A stretch of 64,000 nt of DNA from an uncultured Candidatus Saccharibacteria bacterium (GCA_964536985.1 CAZIBG010000002.1:18738-82737); one strand, 5' to 3'; shown: positions 1 through 34,456, numbered from the stretch's first letter. Program-made: numbers and translations. The notes: generated from the letters alone by a model not told the origin.

Positions 1-942
1 TGAAATAACACTTTTAATCTGAGCAACATGCCCTGTATATAGGCCACCATTCCCTCGCATGATTTCGAATAGATCGTAGTTATGTTTCTGTGGCATGATA
101 GATGATCCCGTAAGAAAATCTGGCGGCAAGGAAAAGTAGTCATACTCGGATGTTGTAAACAACAGCATATCTGCGGCAAACTGACTGGCTAATATCATTA
201 CTGGCTCCAGTACTTGCAGCATTTGCATCTCGAAGAAGCCTCGACTGAGTCCGCAATATATTGGATTAGCTTGAGTTTGGGCGAATCCCAAATAATCTGT
301 CGTTAATTGTCTTTCCGGCACAATTGCTTGCCCCTTAAATCCAAATCCTGAACCTGATCCAAGAGGATTTTGATCTACCATTTTTCGCAATGGAATCAAG
401 AATCCACTTACGTCTTGAAGAGCCTGAGCATACGAATCAAGCCACTCACCTACACTTGTTGGCATAGCCTTTTGCATATGTGTATAGCCTGGCATGTCAT
501 ATCTGCTATTCTCTTTAGCGGCATGCGACAAACTACTTTCAAGAATGTGGATCAGTTGGCTTATTATCTCCAACTGATCCTTCATATACAGACGTAGCAT
601 AACTAAAGACTGGTCATTGCGGCTTCTTAGGAAGTGTACCTTCTTGGCAATATTCCCCGTTTTTTCGATTAAGTACGACTCTAGAAAACTGTGCCCATCC
701 TCGAAGTCTTCGGGTATAGCGAAGCTTTGTGGCAAATCTTGGGCTAACAAATCGAGCTCCTCGACAAGCTTATTGCACTCTTTCTTAGTCAGGATTTCGA
801 TCGCCATCAACATGTTTATGTGCGCTTTGGTTGCGTGTATGTCATAGGCCAGTAGCTTACCATCAACTATGTTATCATTGCCTTTAGTATACCGTTCCAC
901 CAAAGGGTTTATATTGTAGTCACCCCAGATTTTTTTAGTCAT
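1..942 (-). CDS. argH: Argininosuccinate lyase, N-terminal ~314 codons of the copy-1 gene; the 3' end lies beyond the window edge
   Basis: Sequence is identical to 4239..5180 of the complete copy-2 gene. Confidence 0.8.
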   Translation of the reverse strand, partial: MTKKIWGDYNINPLVERYTKGNDNIVDGKLLAYDIHATKAHINMLMAIEILTKKECNKLVEELDLLAQDLPQSFAIPEDFEDGHSFLESYLIEKTGNIAKKVHFLRSRNDQSLVMLRLYMKDQLEIISQLIHILESSLSHAAKENSRYDMPGYTHMQKAMPTSVGEWLDSYAQALQDVSGFLIPLRKMVDQNPLGSGSGFGFKGQAIVPERQLTTDYLGFAQTQANPIYCGLSRGFFEMQMLQVLEPVMILASQFAADMLLFTTSEYDYFSLPPDFLTGSSIMPQKHNYDLFEIMRGNGGLYTGHVAQIKSVIS

Positions 943-1462
943 GAGTATCTCCGGCCGGAAAGTCGTAGGTAAATCTCTTTCTTCCCGCTTCGTTTATCTC
1001 TTCTTTACCCCACATCCAATAGCAACTACTTGTAAATCCCAGCTTCTTTGCAACCGACTGGGAATGAGAGTTAAAAAATCCCGTCACTCCTTGTGCAGCC
1101 GGTTGATCGTTATAGAAACCATCGTCCGTTAGCATCAAAACGAGATCCGTATTAAGTCCCTTGCCTTGCCAATCGGGCAGCGTGGCGCATGAGCCAAGCA
1201 GCAAATAGTGGTGCGATTGCCAACTGTCATGGTTTCGCTTGTCCACTATTTCTTCTACTGATTTAATACTTGCCATGGCGACCACAATACCTTCGATGAC
1301 AGTAATTGCGGTGGCCTTGTTCTCCATCAAACTCTCCACGCTAACCGGCAGCATTTCAGCTTGTTCCTGCGCATACTGCACTATCGGTCCAAAATCCGCC
1401 TCAGTTGGATGCGGAAATTGACCATTTTCTATTATTCCTTGTAACATATATTTCCTTAACAA
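935..1462 (-). CDS. GNAT-family N-acetyltransferase (copy 1); overlaps the argH start and is probably co-transcribed
   Basis: 175 aa with a Q/R-x-x-G-x-G-like motif (LPDWQGKGL). Its 8-bp overlap with the argH start suggests an amino-acid acetyltransferase linked to arginine biosynthesis. Confidence 0.55.
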   Translation of the reverse strand: MLRKYMLQGIIENGQFPHPTEADFGPIVQYAQEQAEMLPVSVESLMENKATAITVIEGIVVAMASIKSVEEIVDKRNHDSWQSHHYLLLGSCATLPDWQGKGLNTDLVLMLTDDGFYNDQPAAQGVTGFFNSHSQSVAKKLGFTSSCYWMWGKEEINEAGRKRFTYDFPAGDTHD

Positions 1463-1468
1463 ATTAAA

Positions 1469-1491
1469 AGCCCCTTATGAACAAAGGGGCT
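1469..1491 (-). terminator. Intrinsic terminator hairpin for the upstream 235-aa gene (copy 1)
   Basis: Stem agcccctt / aaggggct with a 7-nt loop, followed on the minus strand by tttaattt. Confidence 0.5.
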
Positions 1492-1620
1492 GCTAAGGCT
1501 TATATATTTAGAGTAATCTCAAGAGCAGTCCCCGGACATACGGGTGCTGCGGCGGTTCTGTAGGATAGTGAAGTTTGAGATCTTCATAAACACTACGATA
1601 CCATGCTATTACGTTAATGT

Positions 1621-2328
1621 CTACTCTTCTGAGAATAGGTATTTACAAAACTCTGGTCCACGTTCGGAAACACTTGTAATGCTTTCGTCGATAACTACAT
1701 CCACTCCAAATTCGCCAACATCTTTTTTAGCGAACTGTTCTTCGGTTTCATGATGTACGAAAACGGAGTCTCCGTTTTGGCTACTGAAGCCGTTAACTTG
1801 GTTTTCTAGTTCGGCTTTAAGCGCGCAGGATAGTTCCTCTTGGTCGGAATATCTACTATCTGTAATGAAACTCGCTTTTTTTACCTGAACAACATCACCT
1901 ATAAGCTGTAACCGTAATTTGGTGGTGTCTTCGAACTCTTCTGGCTCAAGAGCCCACACTTCGCCAGTTACACCAAATCTAGCACCAGAACTGGTAGTCA
2001 AAATCTTATCGAGAGGCTTATGATCGAACTCCTCAACCACGTCAGCTTTGTCGGCTATTGTCATGGCTTTGCGGATTGTTGGTATTAAGCCAATTGTAAC
2101 GCCTAGAATAACTGGTGCGAGTGCCACGCAAGCAGCTTTCTTGAGCTGCTCACGAGAAGGAGTCCTTCTTTTCTTTTCTATAGGAGCGGCGGCGGCGCGC
2201 TCTGCTAACCAGTCGTTGCGGGCAGATGTCACAAAGCGTTCTAGCTCATGATCGCCAATGCTACGGTAGTTTTGGTCCATGACTAGATCTCTTCCCACAC
2301 CTTTTTTTGCGCTTCTAGTAAATCCCAA
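1621..2328 (-). CDS. Hypothetical membrane-anchored protein (copy 1)
   Basis: 235-aa ORF with a hydrophobic segment (ALAPVILGVTIGLIPTI). No recognisable domain. The start is uncertain because it overlaps the upstream gene by 46 bp. Confidence 0.45.
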   Translation of the reverse strand: MGFTRSAKKGVGRDLVMDQNYRSIGDHELERFVTSARNDWLAERAAAAPIEKKRRTPSREQLKKAACVALAPVILGVTIGLIPTIRKAMTIADKADVVEEFDHKPLDKILTTSSGARFGVTGEVWALEPEEFEDTTKLRLQLIGDVVQVKKASFITDSRYSDQEELSCALKAELENQVNGFSSQNGDSVFVHHETEEQFAKKDVGEFGVDVVIDESITSVSERGPEFCKYLFSEE

Positions 2329-3752
2329 CCGGCCCAGTTTGGCACATCCGCAACAGCAACAAAGACGCCGTCAGGATACGTATTGTCACGTTCTTCTTCT
2401 GCAACACGATACTCCTGATGTACTCCTGTAATTTCTGCACCAGAGCCTCCGGCAACAATTTTGAGTGCTCGCATGAACTCATCCATGCCTCTGTTGTCGA
2501 AATTTAACAAGTCATAGTCTGGCATGCCGTCTTCGCTAAAACCTGAACCGCGGGTGGTCATAGTTAGTATCTGTCGATTCTCTTCGTCAAAATGCAAACG
2601 CACGTAATTGTTGTAGTCGAGTCCGCCAACATTCACATCTAACTCCGGGTAATCTAGCCGGTTTTGACTGATAGAATTATTCAGATATAGACCGTCAACT
2701 TCCGCTATATAGGGGTCGTCGACACTTTTCTTATAGCCAACTTCGTAGCGCGAAAGCATCCTATCTAACACCGTACTTTTTGCTTCTAAGGCCAGATATA
2801 TTGCTTCGTCGGCAATATTATCCTGGTCAACAAGCTGTGCTAGAAGACCCGATAAATAATCGGATGTTCTGTCGCCTAAACCAGGCTTTGAATGGTTAAG
2901 CATGTCTACCAGGGCAGTTATTGTAGGCAAAGTACGTGATTCCAAACTATATGTATCAGAATCTGTTCTTATGCGTCGTGCTGCCTGTGCGGGAGTCATC
3001 GCCCCTCGTGTAGCAGCCTCGGTATATCGATCTTGTTGCTCAGTCTCATCAAAATTAGTTCGCGCCCAAAGGTCAGCAACGTCAGCGGGGTTCAGTGTTA
3101 ATAAATCCATAAATTCATCAATAACAAGATTTCTATTCTTTGGGTCTAGCGGACAGTCTTTTTCAAATTGGCTTATGATATGATCCGTTAAAAGATATTC
3201 AGCGCCATGACTATGACGAGTTGCGTCTTGACCAATATAAATTCCAAAAACTTTATCACCACCAATAGACATCGATCGCTCACCCTCAAGTCCGTCGAAT
3301 GAAATTTGAATAGTGTCAACCTTGATGGCATCTAGAAGTTCGCGGGGCATTTTATCTACAAAGTTAAAAAAGCTTCTGAGTGCATAATCTGCGTCTTCAC
3401 GCTTCTCGCCAGCTAGTGTTCCGATGTTTCTGTCAAAACTGTAGCCGGTAGTTGCAATTCTGCTATTTACGGTTTCGACTAGAGCACCAGTTTCCGCCTC
3501 TTCGCCGAGATCTCCAATACCCAAGCCAACTTCCACGGGTTTTTCGCCGGCAGTCTTTAGATAATCATAGGTTTGGTACGTAAGGGCGTCACGTTCAAGG
3601 GTTGACATACGGCAAGCCACAGCACCAATCGGCTGTGTAGATAGTTCTGGACTTCGGTCGGCGCTGTTTATTGCGCTCTCCGTGGATACAGACGGGATTA
3701 GGCTAAGTGCTGCGATTGTTGCACCGGCACGTAACATATCGATGTTTTTCAT
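2283..3752 (-). CDS. Hypothetical secreted protein (copy 1)
   Basis: 489-aa ORF with an N-terminal signal-peptide-like segment (MKNIDMLRAGATIAALSLIPSVS). No recognisable catalytic motif. Confidence 0.55.
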   Translation of the reverse strand: MKNIDMLRAGATIAALSLIPSVSTESAINSADRSPELSTQPIGAVACRMSTLERDALTYQTYDYLKTAGEKPVEVGLGIGDLGEEAETGALVETVNSRIATTGYSFDRNIGTLAGEKREDADYALRSFFNFVDKMPRELLDAIKVDTIQISFDGLEGERSMSIGGDKVFGIYIGQDATRHSHGAEYLLTDHIISQFEKDCPLDPKNRNLVIDEFMDLLTLNPADVADLWARTNFDETEQQDRYTEAATRGAMTPAQAARRIRTDSDTYSLESRTLPTITALVDMLNHSKPGLGDRTSDYLSGLLAQLVDQDNIADEAIYLALEAKSTVLDRMLSRYEVGYKKSVDDPYIAEVDGLYLNNSISQNRLDYPELDVNVGGLDYNNYVRLHFDEENRQILTMTTRGSGFSEDGMPDYDLLNFDNRGMDEFMRALKIVAGGSGAEITGVHQEYRVAEEERDNTYPDGVFVAVADVPNWAGWDLLEAQKKVWEEI

Positions 3753-3820
3753 AAATTTCCTTCGTGTTATTTTCTGGTAGAGAGGGTCCAGAACACTCAG
3801 GATATGAGAGTTGCTAGTTG

Positions 3821-3870
3821 CCCGGTTACGCTACTGACTCCACAATACTCAAGCGTCCAAATTACGAGTT
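3821..3870. repeat. Conserved ~50-nt leader motif A (copy 1); related copies at 8059..8106 and 8257..8310
   Basis: Shared core ccggttacgctaYtgRctc...aagcgtccaRattac. A short stem acgct/agcgt is retained in all copies while the loop varies. Confidence 0.5.
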
Positions 3871-3986
3871 ATTGCTTCACGGTCTACAACCAAATTGCTT
3901 TGATTAACCACAGCGTACTATGGAAGTTTGTTTGCTGTCAACAAAGTTACATAAAATCTATACTTTTTAGATCTAAAATGTTGTAA

Positions 3987-5180
3987 TTACTGTGCTTCAT
4001 ACTCTTTTTTTATCTTAATATAGGCATCTCTAAATGGTAGACCACTCGCAACAAGGTCGTTAGCCTTTTGCGTTAAATACAAGTCGGGGCTCATGGCTGC
4101 ATCTAATTTTTGCTTGTTCACCACAATAACATCTACAGAATCAGTCCAAACATTTATGGTTGAAGTTAACAATTCCAGTCCCTCTATGAATGGTTTTTTA
4201 GTGAGCTGCAGGTCTCTCTGATAGCCTGATGTTTTCTTTGAAATAACACTTTTAATCTGAGCAACATGCCCTGTATATAGGCCACCATTCCCTCGCATGA
4301 TTTCGAATAGATCGTAGTTATGTTTCTGTGGCATGATAGATGATCCCGTAAGAAAATCTGGCGGCAAGGAAAAGTAGTCATACTCGGATGTTGTAAACAA
4401 CAGCATATCTGCGGCAAACTGACTGGCTAATATCATTACTGGCTCCAGTACTTGCAGCATTTGCATCTCGAAGAAGCCTCGACTGAGTCCGCAATATATT
4501 GGATTAGCTTGAGTTTGGGCGAATCCCAAATAATCTGTCGTTAATTGTCTTTCCGGCACAATTGCTTGCCCCTTAAATCCAAATCCTGAACCTGATCCAA
4601 GAGGATTTTGATCTACCATTTTTCGCAATGGAATCAAGAATCCACTTACGTCTTGAAGAGCCTGAGCATACGAATCAAGCCACTCACCTACACTTGTTGG
4701 CATAGCCTTTTGCATATGTGTATAGCCTGGCATGTCATATCTGCTATTCTCTTTAGCGGCATGCGACAAACTACTTTCAAGAATGTGGATCAGTTGGCTT
4801 ATTATCTCCAACTGATCCTTCATATACAGACGTAGCATAACTAAAGACTGGTCATTGCGGCTTCTTAGGAAGTGTACCTTCTTGGCAATATTCCCCGTTT
4901 TTTCGATTAAGTACGACTCTAGAAAACTGTGCCCATCCTCGAAGTCTTCGGGTATAGCGAAGCTTTGTGGCAAATCTTGGGCTAACAAATCGAGCTCCTC
5001 GACAAGCTTATTGCACTCTTTCTTAGTCAGGATTTCGATCGCCATCAACATGTTTATGTGCGCTTTGGTTGCGTGTATGTCATAGGCCAGTAGCTTACCA
5101 TCAACTATGTTATCATTGCCTTTAGTATACCGTTCCACCAAAGGGTTTATATTGTAGTCACCCCAGATTTTTTTAGTCAT
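3987..5180 (-). CDS. argH: Argininosuccinate lyase (copy 2, complete)
   Basis: 397 aa with the fumarate-lyase family signature GSSIMPQKHN and overall ArgH-like layout. Confidence 0.85.
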   Translation of the reverse strand: MTKKIWGDYNINPLVERYTKGNDNIVDGKLLAYDIHATKAHINMLMAIEILTKKECNKLVEELDLLAQDLPQSFAIPEDFEDGHSFLESYLIEKTGNIAKKVHFLRSRNDQSLVMLRLYMKDQLEIISQLIHILESSLSHAAKENSRYDMPGYTHMQKAMPTSVGEWLDSYAQALQDVSGFLIPLRKMVDQNPLGSGSGFGFKGQAIVPERQLTTDYLGFAQTQANPIYCGLSRGFFEMQMLQVLEPVMILASQFAADMLLFTTSEYDYFSLPPDFLTGSSIMPQKHNYDLFEIMRGNGGLYTGHVAQIKSVISKKTSGYQRDLQLTKKPFIEGLELLTSTINVWTDSVDVIVVNKQKLDAAMSPDLYLTQKANDLVASGLPFRDAYIKIKKEYEAQ

Positions 5181-5700
5181 GAGTATCTCCGGCCGGAAAG
5201 TCGTAGGTAAATCTCTTTCTTCCCGCTTCGTTTATCTCTTCTTTACCCCACATCCAATAGCAACTACTTGTAAATCCCAGCTTCTTTGCAACCGACTGGG
5301 AATGAGAGTTAAAAAATCCCGTCACTCCTTGTGCAGCCGGTTGATCGTTATAGAAACCATCGTCCGTTAGCATCAAAACGAGATCCGTATTAAGTCCCTT
5401 GCCTTGCCAATCGGGCAGCGTGGCGCATGAGCCAAGCAGCAAATAGTGGTGCGATTGCCAACTGTCATGGTTTCGCTTGTCCACTATTTCTTCTACTGAT
5501 TTAATACTTGCCATGGCGACCACAATACCTTCGATGACAGTAATTGCGGTGGCCTTGTTCTCCATCAAACTCTCCACGCTAACCGGCAGCATTTCAGCTT
5601 GTTCCTGCGCATACTGCACTATCGGTCCAAAATCCGCCTCAGTTGGATGCGGAAATTGACCATTTTCTATTATTCCTTGTAACATATATTTCCTTAACAA
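5173..5700 (-). CDS. GNAT-family N-acetyltransferase (copy 2)
   Basis: Identical to 935..1462. Confidence 0.55.
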   Translation of the reverse strand: MLRKYMLQGIIENGQFPHPTEADFGPIVQYAQEQAEMLPVSVESLMENKATAITVIEGIVVAMASIKSVEEIVDKRNHDSWQSHHYLLLGSCATLPDWQGKGLNTDLVLMLTDDGFYNDQPAAQGVTGFFNSHSQSVAKKLGFTSSCYWMWGKEEINEAGRKRFTYDFPAGDTHD

Positions 5701-5706
5701 ATTAAA

Positions 5707-5729
5707 AGCCCCTTATGAACAAAGGGGCT
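5707..5729 (-). terminator. Intrinsic terminator hairpin (copy 2 of 1469..1491)
   Basis: Identical hairpin plus T-run. Confidence 0.5.
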
Positions 5730-5858
5730 GCTAAGGCTTATATATTTAGAGTAATCTCAAGAGCAGTCCCCGGACATACGGGTGCTGCGGCGGTTCTGTA
5801 GGATAGTGAAGTTTGAGATCTTCATAAACACTACGATACCATGCTATTACGTTAATGT

Positions 5859-6566
5859 CTACTCTTCTGAGAATAGGTATTTACAAAACTCTGGTCCACG
5901 TTCGGAAACACTTGTAATGCTTTCGTCGATAACTACATCCACTCCAAATTCGCCAACATCTTTTTTAGCGAACTGTTCTTCGGTTTCATGATGTACGAAA
6001 ACGGAGTCTCCGTTTTGGCTACTGAAGCCGTTAACTTGGTTTTCTAGTTCGGCTTTAAGCGCGCAGGATAGTTCCTCTTGGTCGGAATATCTACTATCTG
6101 TAATGAAACTCGCTTTTTTTACCTGAACAACATCACCTATAAGCTGTAACCGTAATTTGGTGGTGTCTTCGAACTCTTCTGGCTCAAGAGCCCACACTTC
6201 GCCAGTTACACCAAATCTAGCACCAGAACTGGTAGTCAAAATCTTATCGAGAGGCTTATGATCGAACTCCTCAACCACGTCAGCTTTGTCGGCTATTGTC
6301 ATGGCTTTGCGGATTGTTGGTATTAAGCCAATTGTAACGCCTAGAATAACTGGTGCGAGTGCCACGCAAGCAGCTTTCTTGAGCTGCTCACGAGAAGGAG
6401 TCCTTCTTTTCTTTTCTATAGGAGCGGCGGCGGCGCGCTCTGCTAACCAGTCGTTGCGGGCAGATGTCACAAAGCGTTCTAGCTCATGATCGCCAATGCT
6501 ACGGTAGTTTTGGTCCATGACTAGATCTCTTCCCACACCTTTTTTTGCGCTTCTAGTAAATCCCAA
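5859..6566 (-). CDS. Hypothetical membrane-anchored protein (copy 2)
   Basis: Identical to 1621..2328. Confidence 0.45.
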   Translation of the reverse strand: MGFTRSAKKGVGRDLVMDQNYRSIGDHELERFVTSARNDWLAERAAAAPIEKKRRTPSREQLKKAACVALAPVILGVTIGLIPTIRKAMTIADKADVVEEFDHKPLDKILTTSSGARFGVTGEVWALEPEEFEDTTKLRLQLIGDVVQVKKASFITDSRYSDQEELSCALKAELENQVNGFSSQNGDSVFVHHETEEQFAKKDVGEFGVDVVIDESITSVSERGPEFCKYLFSEE

Positions 6567-7990
6567 CCGGCCCAGTTTGGCACATCCGCAACAGCAACAA
6601 AGACGCCGTCAGGATACGTATTGTCACGTTCTTCTTCTGCAACACGATACTCCTGATGTACTCCTGTAATTTCTGCACCAGAGCCTCCGGCAACAATTTT
6701 GAGTGCTCGCATGAACTCATCCATGCCTCTGTTGTCGAAATTTAACAAGTCATAGTCTGGCATGCCGTCTTCGCTAAAACCTGAACCGCGGGTGGTCATA
6801 GTTAGTATCTGTCGATTCTCTTCGTCAAAATGCAAACGCACGTAATTGTTGTAGTCGAGTCCGCCAACATTCACATCTAACTCCGGGTAATCTAGCCGGT
6901 TTTGACTGATAGAATTATTCAGATATAGACCGTCAACTTCCGCTATATAGGGGTCGTCGACACTTTTCTTATAGCCAACTTCGTAGCGCGAAAGCATCCT
7001 ATCTAACACCGTACTTTTTGCTTCTAAGGCCAGATATATTGCTTCGTCGGCAATATTATCCTGGTCAACAAGCTGTGCTAGAAGACCCGATAAATAATCG
7101 GATGTTCTGTCGCCTAAACCAGGCTTTGAATGGTTAAGCATGTCTACCAGGGCAGTTATTGTAGGCAAAGTACGTGATTCCAAACTATATGTATCAGAAT
7201 CTGTTCTTATGCGTCGTGCTGCCTGTGCGGGAGTCATCGCCCCTCGTGTAGCAGCCTCGGTATATCGATCTTGTTGCTCAGTCTCATCAAAATTAGTTCG
7301 CGCCCAAAGGTCAGCAACGTCAGCGGGGTTCAGTGTTAATAAATCCATAAATTCATCAATAACAAGATTTCTATTCTTTGGGTCTAGCGGACAGTCTTTT
7401 TCAAATTGGCTTATGATATGATCCGTTAAAAGATATTCAGCGCCATGACTATGACGAGTTGCGTCTTGACCAATATAAATTCCAAAAACTTTATCACCAC
7501 CAATAGACATCGATCGCTCACCCTCAAGTCCGTCGAATGAAATTTGAATAGTGTCAACCTTGATGGCATCTAGAAGTTCGCGGGGCATTTTATCTACAAA
7601 GTTAAAAAAGCTTCTGAGTGCATAATCTGCGTCTTCACGCTTCTCGCCAGCTAGTGTTCCGATGTTTCTGTCAAAACTGTAGCCGGTAGTTGCAATTCTG
7701 CTATTTACGGTTTCGACTAGAGCACCAGTTTCCGCCTCTTCGCCGAGATCTCCAATACCCAAGCCAACTTCCACGGGTTTTTCGCCGGCAGTCTTTAGAT
7801 AATCATAGGTTTGGTACGTAAGGGCGTCACGTTCAAGGGTTGACATACGGCAAGCCACAGCACCAATCGGCTGTGTAGATAGTTCTGGACTTCGGTCGGC
7901 GCTGTTTATTGCGCTCTCCGTGGATACAGACGGGATTAGGCTAAGTGCTGCGATTGTTGCACCGGCACGTAACATATCGATGTTTTTCAT
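6521..7990 (-). CDS. Hypothetical secreted protein (copy 2)
   Basis: Identical to 2283..3752. Confidence 0.55.
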   Translation of the reverse strand: MKNIDMLRAGATIAALSLIPSVSTESAINSADRSPELSTQPIGAVACRMSTLERDALTYQTYDYLKTAGEKPVEVGLGIGDLGEEAETGALVETVNSRIATTGYSFDRNIGTLAGEKREDADYALRSFFNFVDKMPRELLDAIKVDTIQISFDGLEGERSMSIGGDKVFGIYIGQDATRHSHGAEYLLTDHIISQFEKDCPLDPKNRNLVIDEFMDLLTLNPADVADLWARTNFDETEQQDRYTEAATRGAMTPAQAARRIRTDSDTYSLESRTLPTITALVDMLNHSKPGLGDRTSDYLSGLLAQLVDQDNIADEAIYLALEAKSTVLDRMLSRYEVGYKKSVDDPYIAEVDGLYLNNSISQNRLDYPELDVNVGGLDYNNYVRLHFDEENRQILTMTTRGSGFSEDGMPDYDLLNFDNRGMDEFMRALKIVAGGSGAEITGVHQEYRVAEEERDNTYPDGVFVAVADVPNWAGWDLLEAQKKVWEEI

Positions 7991-8147
7991 AAATTTCCTT
8001 CGTGTTATTTTCTGGTAGAGAGGGTCCAGAACACTCAGGATATGAGAGTTGCTAGTTGCCCGGTTACGCTACTGACTCCACAATACTCAAGCGTCCAAAT
8101 ACGAGTATTGCTTCACGGTCTACAACCAAATTACTTTGATTAGAAAT

Positions 8148-8176
8148 ATAATACGTCTTTGTGGATTGTTTGTCAA
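8148..8176 (-). promoter_or_regulatory. Sigma70-like promoter for the copy-2 secreted-protein gene
   Basis: On the minus strand: TTGACA, 17-bp spacer, TATTAT. It lies right at the duplication boundary, so copy 1 does not have this promoter. Confidence 0.4.
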
Positions 8177-8207: not shown

Positions 8208-8229
8208 CCCCGGACATTTCTGTCCGGGG
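8208..8229 (-). terminator. Rho-independent terminator
   Basis: Perfect hairpin ccccggacatttctgtccgggg followed by ttttt on the minus strand. It lies downstream of the trhO stop. Confidence 0.7.
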
Positions 8230-8256
8230 AAACACCACCAGCTGTCTCTCCTGTCG

Positions 8257-8310
8257 TCCGGTTACGCTATTGGCTCATTCACGTATAAGCGTCCAGATTA
8301 CTACGTGAGT
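8257..8310. repeat. Motif B, related to leader motif A; it lies inside the candidate sRNA unit
   Basis: tccggttacgctattggctcattcacgtataagcgtccagattactacgtgagt, aligned to the A motif. Confidence 0.5.
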
Positions 8311-8385
8311 TCATCGCCTACGACAGAAATTGAGTAGGTGGTTCTTATTTTATATCCTATTGATTAGCGTTGTCAAGTATATGAA

Positions 8386-9273
8386 CTACGCTATATGTGC
8401 GGTTTTATCTGTAGTTTGATGAGAAACACAGTGAGTTTTTTGATCACAGTTATCACATACGAGTACCAGTTTGTTGCAAGAAACTTCGGCGCAGTTGATG
8501 TATCGACTAGTCTTGCCTTGGCAATGAATACAATCACCAATATCTTTTGATTTATCGCTAAAGCGATGTGTCATGCGGTCGTCAAAAATGTGAAGTGCGC
8601 CTTCCCAGAGACCATCATCACCATACTTTTCGCCGTATTTTACGATTCCACCATCTATTTGGTATACCTCTTTAAAGCCACGGTTCTTCATCAGGACACT
8701 AAGGGCTTCACATCGAATACCGCCCGTACAATACGTAACGATTGGCTTGTCCTTGATATCGGCATACTTATCGCCCTCTAATTCTGTTAGGAAATCTCTG
8801 GTAGTTTGGGTGTCAGGCACAACTGCATCTTTAAATTTACCAACTGCGGCTTCATAAGCGTTTCGACCATCGAAGAAGATAACATCGTCGCGTTCATTTA
8901 CTAAGGCATTAACCTGCTCTGGCTTGAGGTGTTTACCGCCACCAACTACGCCTTTATCGTTGACTACTATCTCGTCAGGTGCGCCAAAGCTAACCAGCTC
9001 ATCTCGGACTTTGACGCTGAGCCGCGGGAACTCTCGCCCGTCGCTATCGCTCCACTTATACATGATGCCTTTGAAAATAATTGAGCGATTCATTTCTCGC
9101 TTATATTCGCGGAGGTTTTCTATATCACCACCAAGAGTTCCATTAATACCATGCTTGCTGATAATGATGCGACCTTTTAGCTGAAGCCTGCTGCAAAGCT
9201 CCTTTTGCCAACGCATAGTAATAGCCGCGTCAGCGACAGGCACAAATTTATAGTAAAGGATAACTTTATTCAT
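8386..9273 (-). CDS. trhO: Rhodanese-domain tRNA U34 hydroxylase (TrhO/YceA family)
   Basis: 295 aa. The N-terminus (ILYYKFVPVADA) and a rhodanese CTGGIRCE cysteine loop are typical of the YceA/TrhO family. A tataat box sits 8 nt upstream of the ATG. Confidence 0.7.
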   Translation of the reverse strand: MNKVILYYKFVPVADAAITMRWQKELCSRLQLKGRIIISKHGINGTLGGDIENLREYKREMNRSIIFKGIMYKWSDSDGREFPRLSVKVRDELVSFGAPDEIVVNDKGVVGGGKHLKPEQVNALVNERDDVIFFDGRNAYEAAVGKFKDAVVPDTQTTRDFLTELEGDKYADIKDKPIVTYCTGGIRCEALSVLMKNRGFKEVYQIDGGIVKYGEKYGDDGLWEGALHIFDDRMTHRFSDKSKDIGDCIHCQGKTSRYINCAEVSCNKLVLVCDNCDQKTHCVSHQTTDKTAHIA

Positions 9274-9387: not shown

Positions 9388-11175
9388 GTGAACCAACCCA
9401 AAAAAGTATCATCAGAAGCAATGGACGAAACGCTTCGTCGATACAACCGCGAGATATTGCTGAACAAACGATTCATGTTCCCAGCTTTTATATTGCCTGG
9501 CGTTGGTGTGGCGCTATCACAGTTTGTCCCAGTACTTTTGGTATCGCATTTGCTACAAATCTACCAGACAACCGGCACAATTGCCCCTCAAAAACTCATT
9601 ATTCAAATTGTACTAATTTATGTCGTTTGGTTCGCCGGTGAGATGGTTTATCGCCTGTCCGAGTACTGCAACGAACAAGGTGCCTACCGTGCCATGAAGC
9701 ACTTGTATAGCCAAGCGATGGAGGAGCTACTCCATAGAGACATGGCATTCTTTAACGACAACTTTGCGGGATCTATCACAAAACGTGCCCTTGATTACGG
9801 CGCAAGTTTTGAGGATTATGCAGATAAAATCGGCAAGAACTTTGCCACGTTTGTCATAACCTTCATTTTCAGTGTCATTGTATTATTCAGATTCTCGCCG
9901 TGGATACCATTAGTTTTATTTGTATTGTTTGCCATTACGCTTCGAGGAAGTTTCTTCTTTTTGCGTAGACGTTTACCGATAGTGTTGCAGCGAAATGCCG
10001 CATACAACGAATCAGCAGGCGTATTAGCGGATGTTGTTGCTAACGTAAACACCGTCAAGACATTCGGAAGCGAAGAACAAGAGCTGTCCCGCTATCGAGA
10101 TACAGTTAAGAAACAGATGGATCTACGTTTGAAGTCGTGGAGATACTGGAACGAACGCCACGATATGTTTGTATCTCCTATGTATGTATTAATCAATGTT
10201 CTTGGCTTATGCCTGGCCATTTATGTTGGTCAGAAATCTACCGTAAATTCTGCAGCTATTTTTGTGACATTTAACTATATAGCCCTTATAACTCGTACTC
10301 TTTGGGAACTTGGTCCAATTTACGTCGGTGTGGAGCGCTCTATAAGTAACGCCGCAGAACACGTCGAGCCACTACTGCATGAATCACGAGTCAACGACTA
10401 TCCGCACGCTGTCGATTTAAAAGTCAAAAACTCGGAGATAGAGTTCAGAAATGTCAGCTTTTATTATGAATCCAAAGCCGATCAAGCCTTATTTAAGAAT
10501 CTCAACCTTACCGTTAAGCCCGGCCAGAAGATTGGTCTAGTTGGACATAGTGGTGGGGGCAAGACAACTATCACTAAACTGCTTCTCCGCTTCATGGATA
10601 TTCAAGGCGGCCAGATACTTATAGACGGTCAAAATGTTGCAAGCGTGACTCAACAGAGTCTGCGTAGAAGCATAGCTTATGTACCACAAGAACCCCTGTT
10701 ATTTCACCGATCCTTGGCCGACAACATCAGTTACGGTAAAAGTGGTGCCTCAAAAAAGGACGTACAAATGGCTGCTAAAAAGTCACACGCCGCAGAATTT
10801 ATCGATCAATTACCCGATGGCTTCGAAACGCTTGTAGGTGAACGAGGAGTCAAGCTGTCTGGCGGCCAGCGGCAACGAATTGCTATTGCTCGGGCAATAC
10901 TAAAAGATGCCCCCATACTAGTACTCGATGAAGCAACCAGCGCCCTGGACAGCGAGAGCGAAATCCTAATCCAGAAAGCACTGTGGCAGCTCATGGAAGG
11001 CCGTACGGCAATTGTCATTGCTCACCGCTTAAGTACCATTCAGAAAATGGACAGAATTATCGTACTCGATCAAGGTCAGATTATCGAGGATGGATCACAT
11101 CAAGAACTCCTTAAAAACAAGGGTAAGTACGCCGAGCTTTGGGCACATCAATCGGGTGGTTTCATAGAAGAATAA
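9388..11175 (+). CDS. ABC exporter, fused TMD-NBD half-transporter (MsbA/type I exporter family)
   Basis: 595 aa with six N-terminal TM helices, Walker A GHSGGGKTT, signature LSGGQRQR and Walker B ILVLDEAT. The start is GTG. Confidence 0.85.
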   Translation: MNQPKKVSSEAMDETLRRYNREILLNKRFMFPAFILPGVGVALSQFVPVLLVSHLLQIYQTTGTIAPQKLIIQIVLIYVVWFAGEMVYRLSEYCNEQGAYRAMKHLYSQAMEELLHRDMAFFNDNFAGSITKRALDYGASFEDYADKIGKNFATFVITFIFSVIVLFRFSPWIPLVLFVLFAITLRGSFFFLRRRLPIVLQRNAAYNESAGVLADVVANVNTVKTFGSEEQELSRYRDTVKKQMDLRLKSWRYWNERHDMFVSPMYVLINVLGLCLAIYVGQKSTVNSAAIFVTFNYIALITRTLWELGPIYVGVERSISNAAEHVEPLLHESRVNDYPHAVDLKVKNSEIEFRNVSFYYESKADQALFKNLNLTVKPGQKIGLVGHSGGGKTTITKLLLRFMDIQGGQILIDGQNVASVTQQSLRRSIAYVPQEPLLFHRSLADNISYGKSGASKKDVQMAAKKSHAAEFIDQLPDGFETLVGERGVKLSGGQRQRIAIARAILKDAPILVLDEATSALDSESEILIQKALWQLMEGRTAIVIAHRLSTIQKMDRIIVLDQGQIIEDGSHQELLKNKGKYAELWAHQSGGFIEE

Positions 11176-11260
11176 TGATTTATTAAATCACCCCTTGTCA
11201 TCAGAGGTACGCTTATGGTAGAGTGTAAAAATCATTATTAACGAAAAGGGCGGCCCAACC

Positions 11261-11320
11261 ATGCACAGCATGAAACAACTATATTCTCCATCAGCGGTCG
11301 CTCACATCGTGACTCGCTAG
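11261..11320 (+). CDS. Candidate 19-aa small ORF (MHSMKQLYSPSAVAHIVTR) in the ABC1-ABC2 intergenic region
   Basis: ATG-to-TAG ORF seen directly in the sequence. It has only a weak RBS and no homology, so it is highly speculative. Confidence 0.15.
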   Translation: MHSMKQLYSPSAVAHIVTR

Positions 11321-11397
11321 TCGAAAACGATAGTAAAAAACTTCAAAACAAAACAATAATACCAAGTTAGAACCACTGCAGCAGGAGGCTGTCAGCT

Positions 11398-13185
11398 ATG
11401 AAAAAAGTTATCGACAATACCAACAGGGAGACATTCCGTCTTTACTGGAAATTCGCATGGAATCATAAATCGTACGTAATTGGCTCTATTATCATGAGTT
11501 CTTTATTCGTACTTTTGTACCGCTATCTGCCGCCCCTAATTGTATCTAAGATTTTGGATAGAATTAATACAGGCGACTTTGTTAAAGGCGACCTTGTGGG
11601 CTCGTTCGGAGCACTCCTATTAAGCTACGCCCTTGTAGTATTCGGCGGCGGCGTACTCGCAGGCCGCGTCTTAAACTATATTGTTTGGAAGCTCGAAATG
11701 AATGTCATGGCCGATATCCACCGACACATCTTTAATCACCTCCTAGAACAGAGCAACAATTTCCATGCTAACCGATTTGGTGGCTCGTTAGTTAGTCAGA
11801 CTAACAAATTTGCAGGTGGATATATAAGGATGTACGACACACTAATCTTTCAAACAATTTCGTTGGTGCTGTCGTTTGTATTTAGTGTAGTTATTCTATA
11901 CCCAAGAGCTCCTGGTGTAGCCCTATTCTTAGTTGTGTTTTCTATCCTGTTTATTGTTATCGCAATTAGCATCACAAAAAAAGTTCGTGAGATGTCTACT
12001 ATTTGGGCGCAAAAACAAACCCGTCAAACGGGCTATCTAGCCGATGCCGTATCCAATGTAATTGCCGTGAAGAGTTTTGCGAGACTAAAGTTTGAGAATA
12101 ATAGATTCATCAAAGCCACTAATGAGACCAGGAAGGCCATGGATGATACGAGAAAAGTAAGCATTAGCCGCGAGCTGGTTTTCTCATCTTCTAATGGGAT
12201 CCTTTTGACTTGCAGTCTTGCTATAGCCGTTGCTGGCGTAGTGTTATACGACTACAACGTTGCTACCGTCTTCTTAGTATTTAGCTATATCGGAATTATT
12301 GCCGAAAACTTGTGGGTTTTCAGTAACCACTCGTTGAAGAATATCAATAATGCACTTGGTGACGCATACGATATGACAAAAATATTAGCTATCACACCGA
12401 GCATACAAGATCCACTCCTGCCGCTTAAGCTTTCTGAAGATAAAGGAAATGTTGATTTCAAGAACATCACATTCACCCATGCCGATAACGACCGAGCCCT
12501 GTTTAATAACTTAAGCCTCAGCATAAAACCGGGTGAAAAGATTGGCCTAGTTGGGCATTCGGGCAGCGGCAAGACAACCATTACTAGCCTGATCCTTCGA
12601 TTCGCAGACTTGGACGCCGGGACAATCGAAGTTGACGGCCAAGATATTTCACAAATTAAACAATCCGACCTACGATCAAAAATAACCTACGTTCCACAAG
12701 AACCCTTAATGTTCCACCGCACCATTGCCGAAAACATAGCATACGGCAATCCAAAAGCCACACAAGAACAAATCACCGCAATCGCCAAGCTGGCTAATGC
12801 TCATGAGTTCATTCATACCCTTCCGCTCGGCTACGATACGTTGGTCGGAGAGAGAGGCGTTAAGCTTTCGGGTGGTCAGCGCCAACGTATCGCCATTGCT
12901 CGAGCAATGATTAAGAACGCACCGATCTTAGTTCTTGACGAGGCGACTAGTGCCCTAGATTCAGAAAGTGAAAAGCTAATCCAGCAAGCACTATGGAAAC
13001 TCATGGAAGGCCGCACGGCAATTGTTATTGCCCATCGTCTAAGTACTATCCAGAAGATGGACAGGATCATAGTACTCGATCGCGGCAAGATACTAGAACA
13101 AGGTACTCACGATCAACTCCTAAAGAACAAAGGCAAGTATGCCGAACTTTGGGCTCACCAATCCGGCGGATTTATAGAGGATTAA
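11398..13185 (+). CDS. ABC exporter half-transporter, paralog of the preceding gene
   Basis: 595 aa. The C-terminal ~110 aa are almost identical to ABC1 at protein level while the DNA is diverged. An AGGAGG RBS lies 9 nt upstream of the ATG. Confidence 0.85.
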   Translation: MKKVIDNTNRETFRLYWKFAWNHKSYVIGSIIMSSLFVLLYRYLPPLIVSKILDRINTGDFVKGDLVGSFGALLLSYALVVFGGGVLAGRVLNYIVWKLEMNVMADIHRHIFNHLLEQSNNFHANRFGGSLVSQTNKFAGGYIRMYDTLIFQTISLVLSFVFSVVILYPRAPGVALFLVVFSILFIVIAISITKKVREMSTIWAQKQTRQTGYLADAVSNVIAVKSFARLKFENNRFIKATNETRKAMDDTRKVSISRELVFSSSNGILLTCSLAIAVAGVVLYDYNVATVFLVFSYIGIIAENLWVFSNHSLKNINNALGDAYDMTKILAITPSIQDPLLPLKLSEDKGNVDFKNITFTHADNDRALFNNLSLSIKPGEKIGLVGHSGSGKTTITSLILRFADLDAGTIEVDGQDISQIKQSDLRSKITYVPQEPLMFHRTIAENIAYGNPKATQEQITAIAKLANAHEFIHTLPLGYDTLVGERGVKLSGGQRQRIAIARAMIKNAPILVLDEATSALDSESEKLIQQALWKLMEGRTAIVIAHRLSTIQKMDRIIVLDRGKILEQGTHDQLLKNKGKYAELWAHQSGGFIED

Positions 13186-13186
13186 T

Positions 13187-14950
13187 ATGAAAAAATTTGA
13201 TAACATGAATGCCTCCAAAAAAGCATTACTGTTCATCATGAAGAAGCATAAACGATTCTTCATAACTGAGACATTGCTAGTTGTCACAGCTACATTGCCG
13301 CTGTCATTAATGACGCTTATTCCGGCACGCATTGCGGGAGCGGTCTTTAGTGGTAACTCAAAGCAATTACTAATAGAGTCTGTGATCTTCTGTTTGCTGG
13401 GATGGATCCACGCCATTTTCTGGAACAAAGCAGATTTGTACTACGTAAAGAATACTTACCCATTGTTCTATGACTTGGGTCAGGAAACATTCGAATATGT
13501 ACTAGATAAAGAATATCCAGCGTTTGTTGCCAGTAGTCCGTCTAAAATGGCACAGTACACCAACGAGCTAAGGGACAACGTCGATCGAATATGGTCGAGC
13601 ATTCACTGGGGATATATAGGCTTTGCATTCCAGGTACCGGCAATCATGATCATTTCGCTCAAGGTAAGTTGGGTTCAATCAGTCATATACCTACTTAGTG
13701 TAATGCTAATGGTAATTGTGTTAGTTCGAAGATCGGCACGACTTAACACTCTTACAGATAAGATGTTCACCCAGGACAGTAATCTAAACTCGGTAGTGAT
13801 TGATTCGCTGACCAACTTTGTTAACGTTAAATCGTTCAATGCCGAGCGTAAAGAGATTGATCAGTACGCCGGTCTAATTGTCACATCTAAAAAGAAGTAT
13901 GACGTGGCCAATACTGCCTACATGATGTTCTGGTTTGCTGCGTCCATAGTGATTCGATTTATCACCTGGCCGCTCATCCTAGCCAGCACATACTTACTGT
14001 TTTCCCGTAAGCAGATTAGCGCTGAACAAGTAGTTCTATCTATATCGGTTCTGATAAGTCTGACTGAATTTGTATGGGGACTTGTAGATCGAATTGCAAA
14101 TGCCAAGAAGAACTTCTCAAAAATGCAGAATGGATACCATTATCTTGCAAAGAACGAACAGATATTTGGTGATGGCAAGTCTAAAAACAAAGATAAAAAA
14201 TCTGCTCCAAGCTTTGAATCTACATTAACGTTGCAAGACTTAAGTTTTGCCTACCCTGACCGACCAGAGGAATTTGTCTTGCAAGACCTAAATCTAACCA
14301 TCAATAAGAATGAGAAAATTGGAATAGTCGGCAAGAGTGGAAGTGGAAAATCTACCCTCGTAAAATTGCTGCTTGGTTTTTACGACTATAGCGAAGGGAG
14401 CATACAGTTAGATGGCCAATCGGCAACAAAGCATGACCTTTCAATGCTCAATTCTTACGTGCCCCAAGACACATCACTGTTCCAGCAAACAATCAGCTAT
14501 AACATAGCCTATGCAAAACAATCAAAAGCAACTGAATCCGAGATTGTTACTGCAGCAAAAAAAGCACATGCCCATGAGTTCATAATGAACCTTAAGGATG
14601 GATATGACACGTTGGTCGGTGAACGTGGTGTGAAGTTGAGTCTTGGACAACGACAGCGAATTGCGATTGCACGAGCCTTTCTAAAGAATTCCGAACTTCT
14701 AATTTTAGATGAAGCAACCAGTGCTCTTGATAGCAAGACGGAAGCCAATATACAAAGTGCCCTAGAGGAACTTTGGCAAGATAAGACTGTTATTGCTATC
14801 GCTCACCGATTGTCGACCCTCAATAATGTTGACCGTATTGTGGTAGTAGATAACGGTAAAATCGTGGAAGTTGGAACAAAAGATCAGCTACTTGCTATGA
14901 ACGGTGTATTCACTTCACTATGGAATCAGCAAAAGAACGGCCTGCTATAA
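13187..14950 (+). CDS. ABC exporter half-transporter (third, more divergent)
   Basis: 587 aa with Walker A GKSGSGKST, LSLGQRQR and ILDEAT. Its start abuts the ABC2 stop, suggesting an operon. Confidence 0.85.
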   Translation: MKKFDNMNASKKALLFIMKKHKRFFITETLLVVTATLPLSLMTLIPARIAGAVFSGNSKQLLIESVIFCLLGWIHAIFWNKADLYYVKNTYPLFYDLGQETFEYVLDKEYPAFVASSPSKMAQYTNELRDNVDRIWSSIHWGYIGFAFQVPAIMIISLKVSWVQSVIYLLSVMLMVIVLVRRSARLNTLTDKMFTQDSNLNSVVIDSLTNFVNVKSFNAERKEIDQYAGLIVTSKKKYDVANTAYMMFWFAASIVIRFITWPLILASTYLLFSRKQISAEQVVLSISVLISLTEFVWGLVDRIANAKKNFSKMQNGYHYLAKNEQIFGDGKSKNKDKKSAPSFESTLTLQDLSFAYPDRPEEFVLQDLNLTINKNEKIGIVGKSGSGKSTLVKLLLGFYDYSEGSIQLDGQSATKHDLSMLNSYVPQDTSLFQQTISYNIAYAKQSKATESEIVTAAKKAHAHEFIMNLKDGYDTLVGERGVKLSLGQRQRIAIARAFLKNSELLILDEATSALDSKTEANIQSALEELWQDKTVIAIAHRLSTLNNVDRIVVVDNGKIVEVGTKDQLLAMNGVFTSLWNQQKNGLL

Positions 14951-32011: not shown

Positions 32012-33910
32012 CTAAACAAGTGCTGCCTTGATACGCCTTACACCGGACGAGCTAGCCTCTTCTTTGAGAATCTTGAATTTCTTGCCCTCTTCGAATAACT
32101 GTAGAGAGTGGTCTACGTGTGGACCGCCGCAGATTTCGAAGCTGAATGGCTTTTCGGCTCCATCGGCAATCATCTTATAAACCTTAACCGTGTCGCCATA
32201 GCGATCACCAAATTGACCAAGCGCGCCTAATGGCCCTGTAGCTTCTGCTGTTGGGTACTCTGCCCAGCTAACTTTTAGATCATTTCCGATCTGTTCGTTA
32301 ACAATCGCTTCTACTTGATCGAGTTCTTCACGAGTTACTTTTTGGTCGTGACTAAAGTCAAATCGCAGTCGTTCCTCGGTAATATTACTACCTCGTTGGA
32401 TAACGTGATCGCCGAGTACTTCGCGGAGTGCCTGGTACATAAGGTGTGTTGCCGTGTGATACTTCTTGTGTTGATCCGTTTGGCCACCAAGCCCACCCTT
32501 GAACTGACCCTTGGTAGCCGTCCGCGACATGTCCCGCTGTTTTTTCATATGAGCATCAAATTGCTCACGCCAATCTTCTGCTAGGTCAATCGCCTGCTTT
32601 TCTGCCTCTTCAACACTGAGCTCAACCGGAAAACCATAGGTGTCATATAGCTTAAAGATGAGTTCGCCGTGAATAGATTTGTCTGAGTCCTTGAATAGCT
32701 TTTCAAACTCTCTCAGTCCTTTGGTTAGTGTCTGACGGAATACTTTTTCTTCTTTGCTAAGAGTAGCCATGATTTCGTCTTTTTGAGCTGCAATTTCTGG
32801 AAAATCTTGATGGTATGAATCAAGCACAATAGGAATAGCTAGCTGCATTAGATCTTTTTCAATACCAAGATCAAAGGCGAATCTAATTGCTCGACGCAGT
32901 AGCCGACGCATAACATACCCTTGTTCTTTATTGCTTGGAACAACACCATCAACTGCTAAGAAAACAGCTACACGTAAGTGATCAGCGATAACACGCATGG
33001 CAGCGGTATGGTCGGTATAATCCTTGCCTGTTTCCTTTTGAAGTCCTTCGATTATTGGCCAAAGCAAACTAATTTTAAACATGTCCGGGCTATCGATTGC
33101 AGCAGCGGCAATACGCTCTAGGCCACCACCAAAATCAACGTTCTTGTTTGGTAACTCTTCGAAACCTTTGTCGGTTCGCTTGTAAGTCATAAATACCGAG
33201 TTACCAATTTCCATAAAGCGACCACAGTCACAGTTTGGATGACAATGAGGACCAAAGTCGGTGTTGTGCTCGATCTCGTCGAACATATAAAATACTTCGC
33301 TGTCTGGACCACATGGGTCACCAACAGGAGTGGTCGCTGGCTTTCCGCCTCGGCTCCACCAGTTCTTGGCACCATCATAATAGAAGATACGCTCGCCTTC
33401 GTTGATGCCACGCTTATAGCCGTCTGCTTCTGAGCCAATCATCGCTGGCTGGGCATCGATACCTTTTGCTTTGAAAAGGTCTTGCCAGATTTTAACTGAT
33501 TCATCATCTTTAGGAAGATCGAATTCATCGTCGCCAGCAAAGACCGTTACATAGATTTTATTTGGATCAAGTCCAACTTTTTCGGTCAAGAAGGTGAAGA
33601 ACCATGGCAGTTGCTCGGCCTTAAAATAATCGCCAAAGCTCCAGTTACCAAGCATCTCGAAGAATGTTGTGTGGCGGTTATCGCCAACCTCCTCAATATC
33701 ATCGGCCCGAAAACATGTCTGACTATCAGCCACCCGTGAACCAGCCGGATGAGGCTCGCCTAACAGATACGGAAGTAGTGGCTGCATTCCAGAGCCGGTA
33801 AATAGTGTTGTCGGGTCATTATCGGGTATTAGCTTGGCACGCGGAATGACAACATGTTTGTTTTGTTTGCAAAAATCGAGATAGGCTTTACGGATGTCTT
33901 GAGCGTTCAT
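32012..33910 (-). CDS. alaS: Alanine--tRNA ligase, short form lacking the C-terminal editing and C-Ala region
   Basis: 632 aa. The N-terminal catalytic domain (FTGSGMQPL ... FEMLGNWSFGDYFK) is clear. A tataat box lies 6 nt upstream of the ATG. Confidence 0.85.
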   Translation of the reverse strand: MNAQDIRKAYLDFCKQNKHVVIPRAKLIPDNDPTTLFTGSGMQPLLPYLLGEPHPAGSRVADSQTCFRADDIEEVGDNRHTTFFEMLGNWSFGDYFKAEQLPWFFTFLTEKVGLDPNKIYVTVFAGDDEFDLPKDDESVKIWQDLFKAKGIDAQPAMIGSEADGYKRGINEGERIFYYDGAKNWWSRGGKPATTPVGDPCGPDSEVFYMFDEIEHNTDFGPHCHPNCDCGRFMEIGNSVFMTYKRTDKGFEELPNKNVDFGGGLERIAAAAIDSPDMFKISLLWPIIEGLQKETGKDYTDHTAAMRVIADHLRVAVFLAVDGVVPSNKEQGYVMRRLLRRAIRFAFDLGIEKDLMQLAIPIVLDSYHQDFPEIAAQKDEIMATLSKEEKVFRQTLTKGLREFEKLFKDSDKSIHGELIFKLYDTYGFPVELSVEEAEKQAIDLAEDWREQFDAHMKKQRDMSRTATKGQFKGGLGGQTDQHKKYHTATHLMYQALREVLGDHVIQRGSNITEERLRFDFSHDQKVTREELDQVEAIVNEQIGNDLKVSWAEYPTAEATGPLGALGQFGDRYGDTVKVYKMIADGAEKPFSFEICGGPHVDHSLQLFEEGKKFKILKEEASSSGVRRIKAALV

Positions 33911-34378: not shown

Positions 34379-34456
34379 AATTATCTCCTTCAGAGGTTAT
34401 GGAACTCGTCTCCACAAACTAAAATAAACACCTGGTGGTGTATGAGTTTAAGAGGG

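Follow-up and report, generated by a model that had tools for sequence, protein, structure and literature searches.

Chromosomal segments between short direct repeats can be duplicated and amplified, as Anderson and Roth, and Reams and Roth, reportedly described in classical studies. The repeats that serve for duplication, amplification and deletion through unequal recombination include, in Salmonella and E. coli, rrn, insertion sequence (IS) and repetitive extragenic palindromic (REP) elements. False segmental and tandem duplications may also be generated by assembly, as Kelley and Salzberg are said to have described in 2010. Instances on record are the lac amplification of E. coli (PMC1428787) and a direct tandem duplication of 165 kb in P. 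syringae DC3000 (PMC3916326). Riboswitches of the cyclic di-GMP-II (c-di-GMP-II) class are known to occur in tandem, 59 doublets and 9 triplets having been described, mostly before surface-anchor protein genes of Paraclostridium and relatives (PMC9481103). The locus analyzed here lies at the start of a stretch of 64,000 nucleotides (nt) from an uncultured Candidatus Saccharibacteria bacterium (GCA_964536985.1 CAZIBG010000002.1:18738-82737), hereafter called the window, in which a four-gene block is present in two head-to-tail copies. We consider it probable that this tandem duplication arose by unequal homologous recombination between riboswitch-leader direct repeats: the block would have been duplicated because it is flanked by two near-identical c-di-GMP riboswitch leaders.

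Comparison of the window with itself, on which the repeat finder and the gapped alignment agreed, showed that positions 1..3862 equal positions 4239..8100 base for base, with an offset of 4238. For an exact repeat of 3.9 kb, a chance origin is impossible. Beyond 3862/8100, copy 1 carries an extra T at 3863 and a second one at 3869/3870, and the sole substitution between the copies opposes G at 3897 (copy 1) to A at 8133 (copy 2). The last homologous positions are 3906 and 8142, after which (A at 3907, G at 8143) the sequences are unrelated. An earlier interpretation of this DNA, made without database searches (the sequence-only reading), had given 1..3907 and 4239..8145 as identical; the exact repeat stands, its extent being slightly overstated. 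The two 1-bp indels and the substitution that it had noticed near the junction were recovered by aligning both units, and so was the head-to-tail duplication of four genes, the period being 4238. The minus strand carries every gene of the unit, and the translations of copy 1 are identical to those of copy 2. It is plausible that unit 1 begins ~330 bp before the window start. The two copies, with nothing between them, their genes (lengths in amino acids, aa) and the unique upstream flank are as follows.

1..3906, minus strand: copy 1 of the repeated unit, incomplete at the window start, from the 5' 942 nt of its argH-like gene (argH-like') to a recombinant riboswitch leader
4239..8142, minus strand: copy 2 of the repeated unit, its argH-like gene lying partly outside the interval, ending in the RS-B leader
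3987..5180, minus strand (copy 1: 1..942, cut by the window start): argH-like lyase gene, 397 aa
5173..5685, minus strand (copy 1: 935..1447): GNAT-like gene, 170 aa
5707..5729, minus strand (copy 1: 1469..1491): terminator-like hairpin 3' of g235
5859..6518, minus strand (copy 1: 1621..2280): g235, called as 219 aa, membrane protein with one strongly hydrophobic segment
6521..7990, minus strand (copy 1: 2283..3752): g489, 489 aa, signal-peptide-like N-terminus
8386..9273, minus strand: trhO-like (UPF0176/rhodanese) gene (Pfam PF17773, PF00581, PF12368), in the unique upstream flank of the duplicated region

Each unit closes with ~92 nt that represent a minus-strand c-di-GMP-II riboswitch (leader and aptamer). 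Aptamers were identified with the Rfam covariance model RF01786, whose gathering threshold is 53.5 bits, and matches below this threshold were obtained in permissive mode. The regulatory elements around the two copies of g489 are listed below; RS_a denotes the leader that precedes another gene, X, in relatives of this strain.

8049..8132, minus strand: RS-B, c-di-GMP-II aptamer before g489 copy 2, 62.5 bits, above threshold
8247..8330, minus strand: RS-A, c-di-GMP-II aptamer in tandem with RS-B, 61.8 bits, above threshold
3811..3896, minus strand: recombinant aptamer of copy 1, 51.9 bits, E=1.2e-10, permissive mode
3816..3862, minus strand: 47-nt aptamer core shared exactly by RS-B and RS_a, the interval of exchange or of a graph mis-join
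8148..8176, minus strand: P_B, TTGACA-17-TATTAT, promoter of RS-B
3912..3941, minus strand: P', TTGACA-18-TACGCT, weak sigma-70-like promoter read from the sequence and under the promoter-scan threshold
8347..8376, minus strand: P_A, TTGACA-18-TAAAAT, promoter of RS-A, close behind the trhO-like stop (8386)
8208..8229, minus strand: intrinsic terminator of RS-A, its expression platform, CCCCGGACAGAAATGTCCGGGG followed by a T-run, fold z-score -2.9
3753..3810, minus strand (copy 2: 7991..8048): g489 expression platform, 58 nt, identical in both copies

On the minus strand, copy 2 is thus preceded, in order, by the trhO-like stop, P_A, RS-A, its terminator, P_B, RS-B and the 58-nt platform of g489. 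The promoter that had been proposed upstream of copy 2 was confirmed at 8176..8148, on the strand of g489. The duplicated unit does not include RS-A, which is accordingly missing upstream of copy 1; this copy keeps a c-di-GMP-II aptamer and the platform of copy 2, only P_B, P_A and RS-A being lost. The g489 platform contains no terminator and ends in the Shine-Dalgarno motif AAGGA, followed by the ATG. Minimum-free-energy folding of the leaders yielded clear terminators for RS-A and RS_a only; it did not recover the pseudoknotted aptamer, and the z-scores of the g489 leaders were insignificant.

Relatives were collected from public metagenome contigs, through exact-protein look-ups (g489, argH-like, trhO, GNAT and cluster mates) that gave ~20 contigs from at least 10 runs, and through a scan for the 42-nt aptamer core. 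Two contigs, L009 (11.7 kb) and L010 (13.3 kb), each contain two aptamer cores 4235 nt apart and no third, and they carry the unit once. Related single-copy strains are 97.5-98% identical to the window; for these two contigs the figure is ~97.5%, over everything between the ABC/trhO side and the second aptamer. They part from the window at 3816, beyond which an intrinsic terminator and gene X follow, giving the order ABC-trhO-RS-A-P_B-RS-B-g489-g235-GNAT-argH-like-P'-RS_a-X. Within each of them, RS-B and RS_a match at 90/91 nt, so that near-identical direct repeats flank the single copy. The side running from the argH-like gene through RS_a to X is likewise seen in the ENA contigs L004 and L017, and the side from trhO through RS-B to g489 in L012. 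Among species-representative genomes, the riboswitch core pattern was absent. The sequence-only reading had considered recent gene amplification or an assembly artefact and had pointed to related genomes as a means of finding out whether the locus is single-copy; it is so in L009 and L010, and the window holds a strain-specific, apparently recent event or an artefact.

The unit may also be missing altogether. Contig L018 (ENA MEGAHIT contig k127_10627), found in two samples of PRJEB12083 (hospital and wastewater effluent), has the order trhO-RS-A-terminator-P_B-aptamer-RS_a platform/terminator-X-347aa and lacks the entire 4.2-kb unit. Judged by its sequence, it is the reciprocal deletion recombinant, P_B::aptamer::X platform. 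If the contig name gives the final k, 127 exceeds the ~94 nt that link the unique sides, and the joint of L018 would be supported by reads. Its trhO/RS-A flank is 93.9% identical to the window and 95.9% to L009, and its X is 99% identical. Copy number therefore takes the values 0 (L018), 1 (L009, L010) and 2 (the window).

The joint between the two copies of the window is a chimera of both parental repeats, with the RS_a leader 5' of 3862 and the RS-B platform 3' of 3816. Indeed, from the argH-like stop through ...GGGCAACT, the joint leader is that of RS_a in L004, L009 and L010 (alignment A3), the match taking in both extra nucleotides and the G/A position; after GGGCAACT it switches to the RS-B platform (AGCAACTCTCATATCC...ATG of g489). 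The three differences between the copies are confined to the aptamer's 5' half and the single nucleotide preceding it. Since the copy-1 variant is the RS_a of L004, L009, L010 and L017, these differences pre-date the duplication and are not later mutations: on these alignments, the indels and the substitution are paralogue differences between RS_a and RS-B. The arbitrary breakpoint that had been placed at 3907/3908 accordingly gives way to a recombinant of two pre-existing paralogous riboswitch leaders, with the exchange within 3862..3816. Copy-1 g489 does lie under different upstream DNA, as had been claimed, but what had been called the argH 3' flank is more than a flank, being the native P' region and leader of gene X. 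P' is located within the 79 nt that follow the argH-like stop, which are identical in L004, L009 and L010; in the single-copy relatives it is the native upstream region of RS_a and X, and here it precedes g489 of copy 1. P' and P_B have the same -35 hexamer, an equal distance from the leader and some spacer similarity, and the homology of the RS-B and RS_a leaders starts at about the predicted transcription start of P_B (8142).

The recombinant aptamer combines an RS_a-type 5' half, with two extra nucleotides, and the shared 3' half, and is the same allele as RS_a in the relatives (52.3 bits there). The joint aptamer and the relatives' RS_a aptamers score 51.9-53.0 bits (E ~1e-9 to 1e-10, full-length 1-84 match), which is 0.5-1.6 bits under the gathering threshold because of the two 1-nt insertions. 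These place a bulged A in a stem and extend a loop from 14 to 15 nt. As the longer allele is conserved in both leaders of relatives, the copy-1 aptamer is probably functional. The RS-B allele of the window, shared with L006 and L012, differs from the RS-B of L008, L009, L010 and L014 by two 1-nt deletions and one substitution within 45 nt, in backgrounds that are otherwise 97.5-99.7% identical, and these changes lift the Rfam score from ~53 to 62.5 bits. Gene conversion from a third paralogue is a possibility for such clustered changes. One Logan contig, L006 (SRR25018320), ends at 8080 instead of the 8071 expected for an assumed k=31 graph, a hint that this sample holds another variant of the leader.

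The tandem arrangement of RS-A and RS-B resembles the described c-di-GMP-II doublets in that two full aptamers stand in series before the gene of a probably secreted protein and RS-A has its own terminator platform. It departs from them (PMC9481103) by the strong promoter P_B between the aptamers, through which RS-B transcripts can bypass RS-A, and by a third near-identical aptamer, RS_a, that governs the next operon 4.2 kb downstream. Further differences are the 1-nt bulge and 1-nt longer loop that leave RS_a-type aptamers just under the Rfam gathering threshold, and the host, which looks like an uncultured and possibly reduced-genome wastewater bacterium instead of a clostridium.

In the mechanism that we favor, the ancestral locus would be single-copy, with the block of g489, g235, GNAT-like and argH-like genes placed between the paralogous direct leaders RS-B and RS_a, 4238 nt apart. 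RS-B, with promoter P_B and a platform devoid of terminator, would control g489, and RS_a, with the weak P' and a terminator platform, would control gene X. The two leaders, ~92 nt long, would show near-identity between roughly the transcription start and the aptamer end. An unequal exchange inside the 47-nt identical aptamer core, either between sister chromosomes or through a 4238-nt circle excised and re-integrated, would then yield the tandem duplication and the new joint, composed of P', the 5' half of the RS_a aptamer, the shared core and the g489 platform, and the reciprocal exchange would delete the block. The main reason to favor a real event is that the locus occurs with 0, 1 or 2 copies and that every novel joint falls in the same leader repeat.

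The locus shares with repeat-mediated duplications the direct repeats that flank the single-copy unit, the chimeric joint, the head-to-tail and identical copies, the existence of the reciprocal deletion and a copy number that varies among close strains. Unlike in the rrn, IS and REP cases, the repeat is here a c-di-GMP-II leader and aptamer of ~92 nt, whose perfectly identical part in this strain is just 47 nt long. As a consequence, the exchange also swaps promoters and expression platforms between two genes. The mechanism is thus classical repeat-mediated tandem duplication, and tandem riboswitches like RS-A/RS-B are already known; the unusual element is that a riboswitch serves as the repeat. 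A limited literature search returned no account of riboswitch aptamers at the endpoints of a duplication.

The duplication would double the dosage of four genes and would leave both g489-g235 copies behind a c-di-GMP-II aptamer with the same platform. Their transcription would nevertheless differ. There is no terminator from the argH-like stop to the copy-1 leader, so copy 1 would be driven by the weak P' together with read-through of the GNAT-argH-like transcript. Copy 1 would hence have exchanged the strong P_B, along with the upstream gate formed by P_A, RS-A and its terminator, for a weak P' and read-through.

The chief alternative, which we regard as unlikely while giving it real weight, is an assembly artefact: in a single-copy genome, the assembler, a contig merger or a gap closer would have circled twice from the core through g489 to the argH-like gene, P' and the RS_a 5' half and back to the core. 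This could happen if the repeat node were at least as long as k, or if a co-occurring strain supplied k-mers joining an RS_a-like aptamer to the g489 platform. Like false assembly duplications, the two copies are adjacent and perfectly identical, and the repeat in which their joint exactly sits doubles as a node of the de Bruijn graph. Unlike them, the joint is clean and recombinant, with neither Ns nor ragged overlap, the repeat is shorter than the usual k and reads, and an independent natural deletion allele has formed through the same repeats. Within one strain, the 47-nt shared core is below read length and below common metagenome final k (55-141), so that a clonal single-copy sample would give no cycle. 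The natural reciprocal deletion, in a contig whose name suggests k=127, moreover shows that these repeats do recombine.

The source contig seems to extend on both sides of the duplication, and a clean path that enters the loop, runs through it twice and exits would be an unusual mode of failure. A 101,137-nt NCBI contig is on record for the exact g489 protein of the window (P0003), and an NCBI contig of the same length for this strain's gene X (P0009; X of L009 is 99% identical). Since X was not found in the 64-kb window, the duplication is probably internal to the 101-kb contig, with unique DNA on both sides, trhO on one and X on the other. To the left of the window, we predict the remaining 251 nt of argH-like', the 79-nt P' flank, RS_a, a terminator (GCGGTTTGGCCCATACGCCAAGCCGC and a T-run) and gene X, whose product begins MARGFEQTDG. 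On this reading, the source reads would support two copies.

Several observations weigh on the other side. The duplication joint was found in no independent assembly among the ~20 recovered contigs, the Logan ones all breaking at the shared core, and every resolved relative is single-copy or lacks the block. Where contigs of larger k read across the riboswitch that follows the argH-like gene (L004, L009, L010, L017), they all enter X and not g489. The RS-B of L008/L009/L014-type strains natively has the two extra nucleotides, and the near-identical L008 (99.7%) and L014 (99.55%) carry this allele; the sequence running from 3880 into g489 thus exists in single-copy genomes. A strain mixture could in this way produce a shared node of 65 nt, through which a loop is possible for an assembler with k of 55 or less. 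Since one graph edge traversed twice guarantees by construction that the copies are identical, their identity says nothing about age.

The Logan contigs, which we take to have been built at k=31, end at the expected node edges: at least 10 of them start at 3845 (=3815+30) and stop at 3833 (=3863-30) or 3851, the last position corresponding to strains whose RS-B differs from RS_a at 3881 alone. As the k=31 graph is the same for one and for two copies, these contigs carry no copy-number information. The same holds for the single-nucleotide haplotype at 6959 and 6626, of which the window has a unique (C,T) intermediate, uninformative on copy number. A spurious 60-aa open reading frame (ORF) spanning the duplication joint was not on record in the exact-protein look-up, which is likewise uninformative.

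A very improbable alternative takes the zero-copy state of L018 as ancestral and the block as a cassette, inserted by Campbell-type integration of a 4238-nt circle with one aptamer, twice in the window. A circle re-integrating at the aptamer would yield exactly the observed joint. L018, more divergent in its trhO/RS-A flank and 99% identical in X, could represent an older lineage, and the orphan status of g489, which falls in just two 90%-identity clusters among 5.8 billion proteins, is what would be expected of accessory DNA. However, the shared -35 hexamer, distance and spacer similarity of P' and P_B suggest an old in-situ duplication of promoter and leader, and the guanine-cytosine (GC) content of the unit is that of its surroundings. 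Pfam and NCBIfam searches detected no recombinase or mobility genes in the unit, and no integrase or reverse transcriptase genes in it or adjoining it. Besides, for the window, this scenario differs from recombination between resident leaders in the intermediate only. Hardly credible, finally, are an arbitrary endpoint at 3907/3908 followed by mutation of the copy-1 riboswitch under relaxed or adaptive selection, a retro-duplication and a site-specific mobile element: the differences do all lie within 45 nt of the joint, with none in 3862 nt, and homology does start at about the predicted P_B transcription start, but the copy-1 variant is base for base the RS_a leader of L004, L009, L010 and L017, including the flank to the argH-like stop, the other end of the unit is not at a terminator, and neither integrase nor reverse transcriptase is present in or beside the unit. 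Later mutation of the copy-1 riboswitch was rejected as contradicted by alignments A3 and A5, retro-duplication from transcription start to terminator for the lack of a terminator at the other end and of a reverse transcriptase, and an integron-like or site-specific cassette for the lack of an integrase in or near the unit.

If the recombination between leaders is real, this one locus offers, at the level of the population, a clean natural series: the two parental leaders (P_B::aptamer::g489 platform; P'::aptamer::X platform) together with the reciprocal products, namely the duplication joint of the window and the deletion joint of L018. A conserved aptamer of ~90 nt would then provide enough homology to alter the dosage of the operon that it flanks, and the swap of promoter and platform between c-di-GMP-regulated genes would be one route of modular riboswitch evolution. 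For annotation, the locus is a warning that clustered "mutations" at the edge of a duplication can be paralogue differences; for assembly, that an aptamer repeat forms a graph node at which assemblies of short k break or loop. The general interest is modest, given a textbook mechanism, uncharacterised gene products and a possible assembly artefact.

The window contains a second pair of c-di-GMP-II(-GAG) leaders, at 34456..34541 and 37369..37454, both on the minus strand. These direct repeats, 2913 nt apart, share ~89 nt at 100% identity, a stretch that begins right behind a promoter-like TTGAC and runs to where the aptamer ends; their flanks are unrelated. They bracket a three-gene operon (36616..37317, 35912..36616 and 34662..35909) encoding membrane or secreted proteins without assigned function, and the leader at 34456..34541 precedes an ORF for a 91-aa membrane protein (34036..34311). 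With the same architecture as RS-B/RS_a, this pair is a candidate for another copy-number cassette. A broader and rather doubtful speculation, to which this second identical pair lends support, is that this organism maintains near-identical leaders as direct repeats flanking accessory operons, and that they act as recombination handles that give reversible copy-number variation (0, 1, 2+) of c-di-GMP-controlled secreted or cell-surface cassettes. Were this the case, exchanges would shuffle promoters, aptamers and platforms, and the window would represent a selected amplification together with a natural rewiring of riboswitch modules.

The argH-like product is an ArgH-family lyase of putative function, and the earlier label "argH" goes too far: it scores 258.2 bits, below the NCBIfam equivalog cut-off of 279.5 (TIGR00838), over profile positions 23-383 of 455, and lacks the C-terminal ~70 residues of ArgH, its length being 397 aa in relatives as well. 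Its nearest PDB entries are argininosuccinate lyase (ASL) and delta-crystallin, over residues 4-388. The argH-like gene overlaps by 8 nt the GNAT-like gene, whose product is GNAT-like at best, the previous GNAT call resting below the Pfam threshold (PF00583, 20.2 bits for a gathering value of 20.7, E=7e-4), and an NCBIfam search of the protein giving no match. Neither g489 nor g235 matched Pfam or NCBIfam, and a search of species-representative genomes found no relatives of g489. An AlphaFold2 model of g489, built from a 7-sequence alignment, was unusable (mean predicted local distance difference test score, pLDDT, 34.5).

Downstream of RS_a, and predicted to the left of the window, are two genes that in the single-copy relative occupy the following positions.

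L009 6332..9463: gene X, ~1035-1043 aa (1043 aa in L009), carrying linkers rich in Thr/Pro and, at the C-terminus, an SLT/lytic transglycosylase domain
L009 9475..10518: gene of the following 347-aa protein

Both lie behind the RS_a riboswitch, whose platform is a terminator; in L018, the two genes instead follow P_A/RS-A/P_B directly. On the other side of the locus, three tandem paralogous ABC exporter genes (9388..14950, plus strand) encode proteins of 595, 595 and 587 aa with ABC_membrane and ABC_tran domains, their DNA being 62-73% identical (repeat family D1). Farther along, the window encodes a short alanine-tRNA ligase of the PRK01584 type (32012..33910, minus strand, 632 aa) and a short methionine-tRNA ligase (42502..43956, minus strand, 484 aa). 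These short ligases, the orphan secreted proteins and the fact that relatives come from wastewater jointly suggest an uncultured reduced-genome bacterium. An ARAGORN scan of the 64-kb window returned no tRNA gene, and a transfer-messenger RNA (tmRNA) at 48500..48912 on the minus strand, found by Rfam with 78.5 bits, was not found by ARAGORN. Lastly, a direct repeat of 197 nt with 71% identity (52294..52490 and 53862..54058) lies inside the adjacent minus-strand genes 51156..52526 and 52550..54160, which are probably tandem paralogues.

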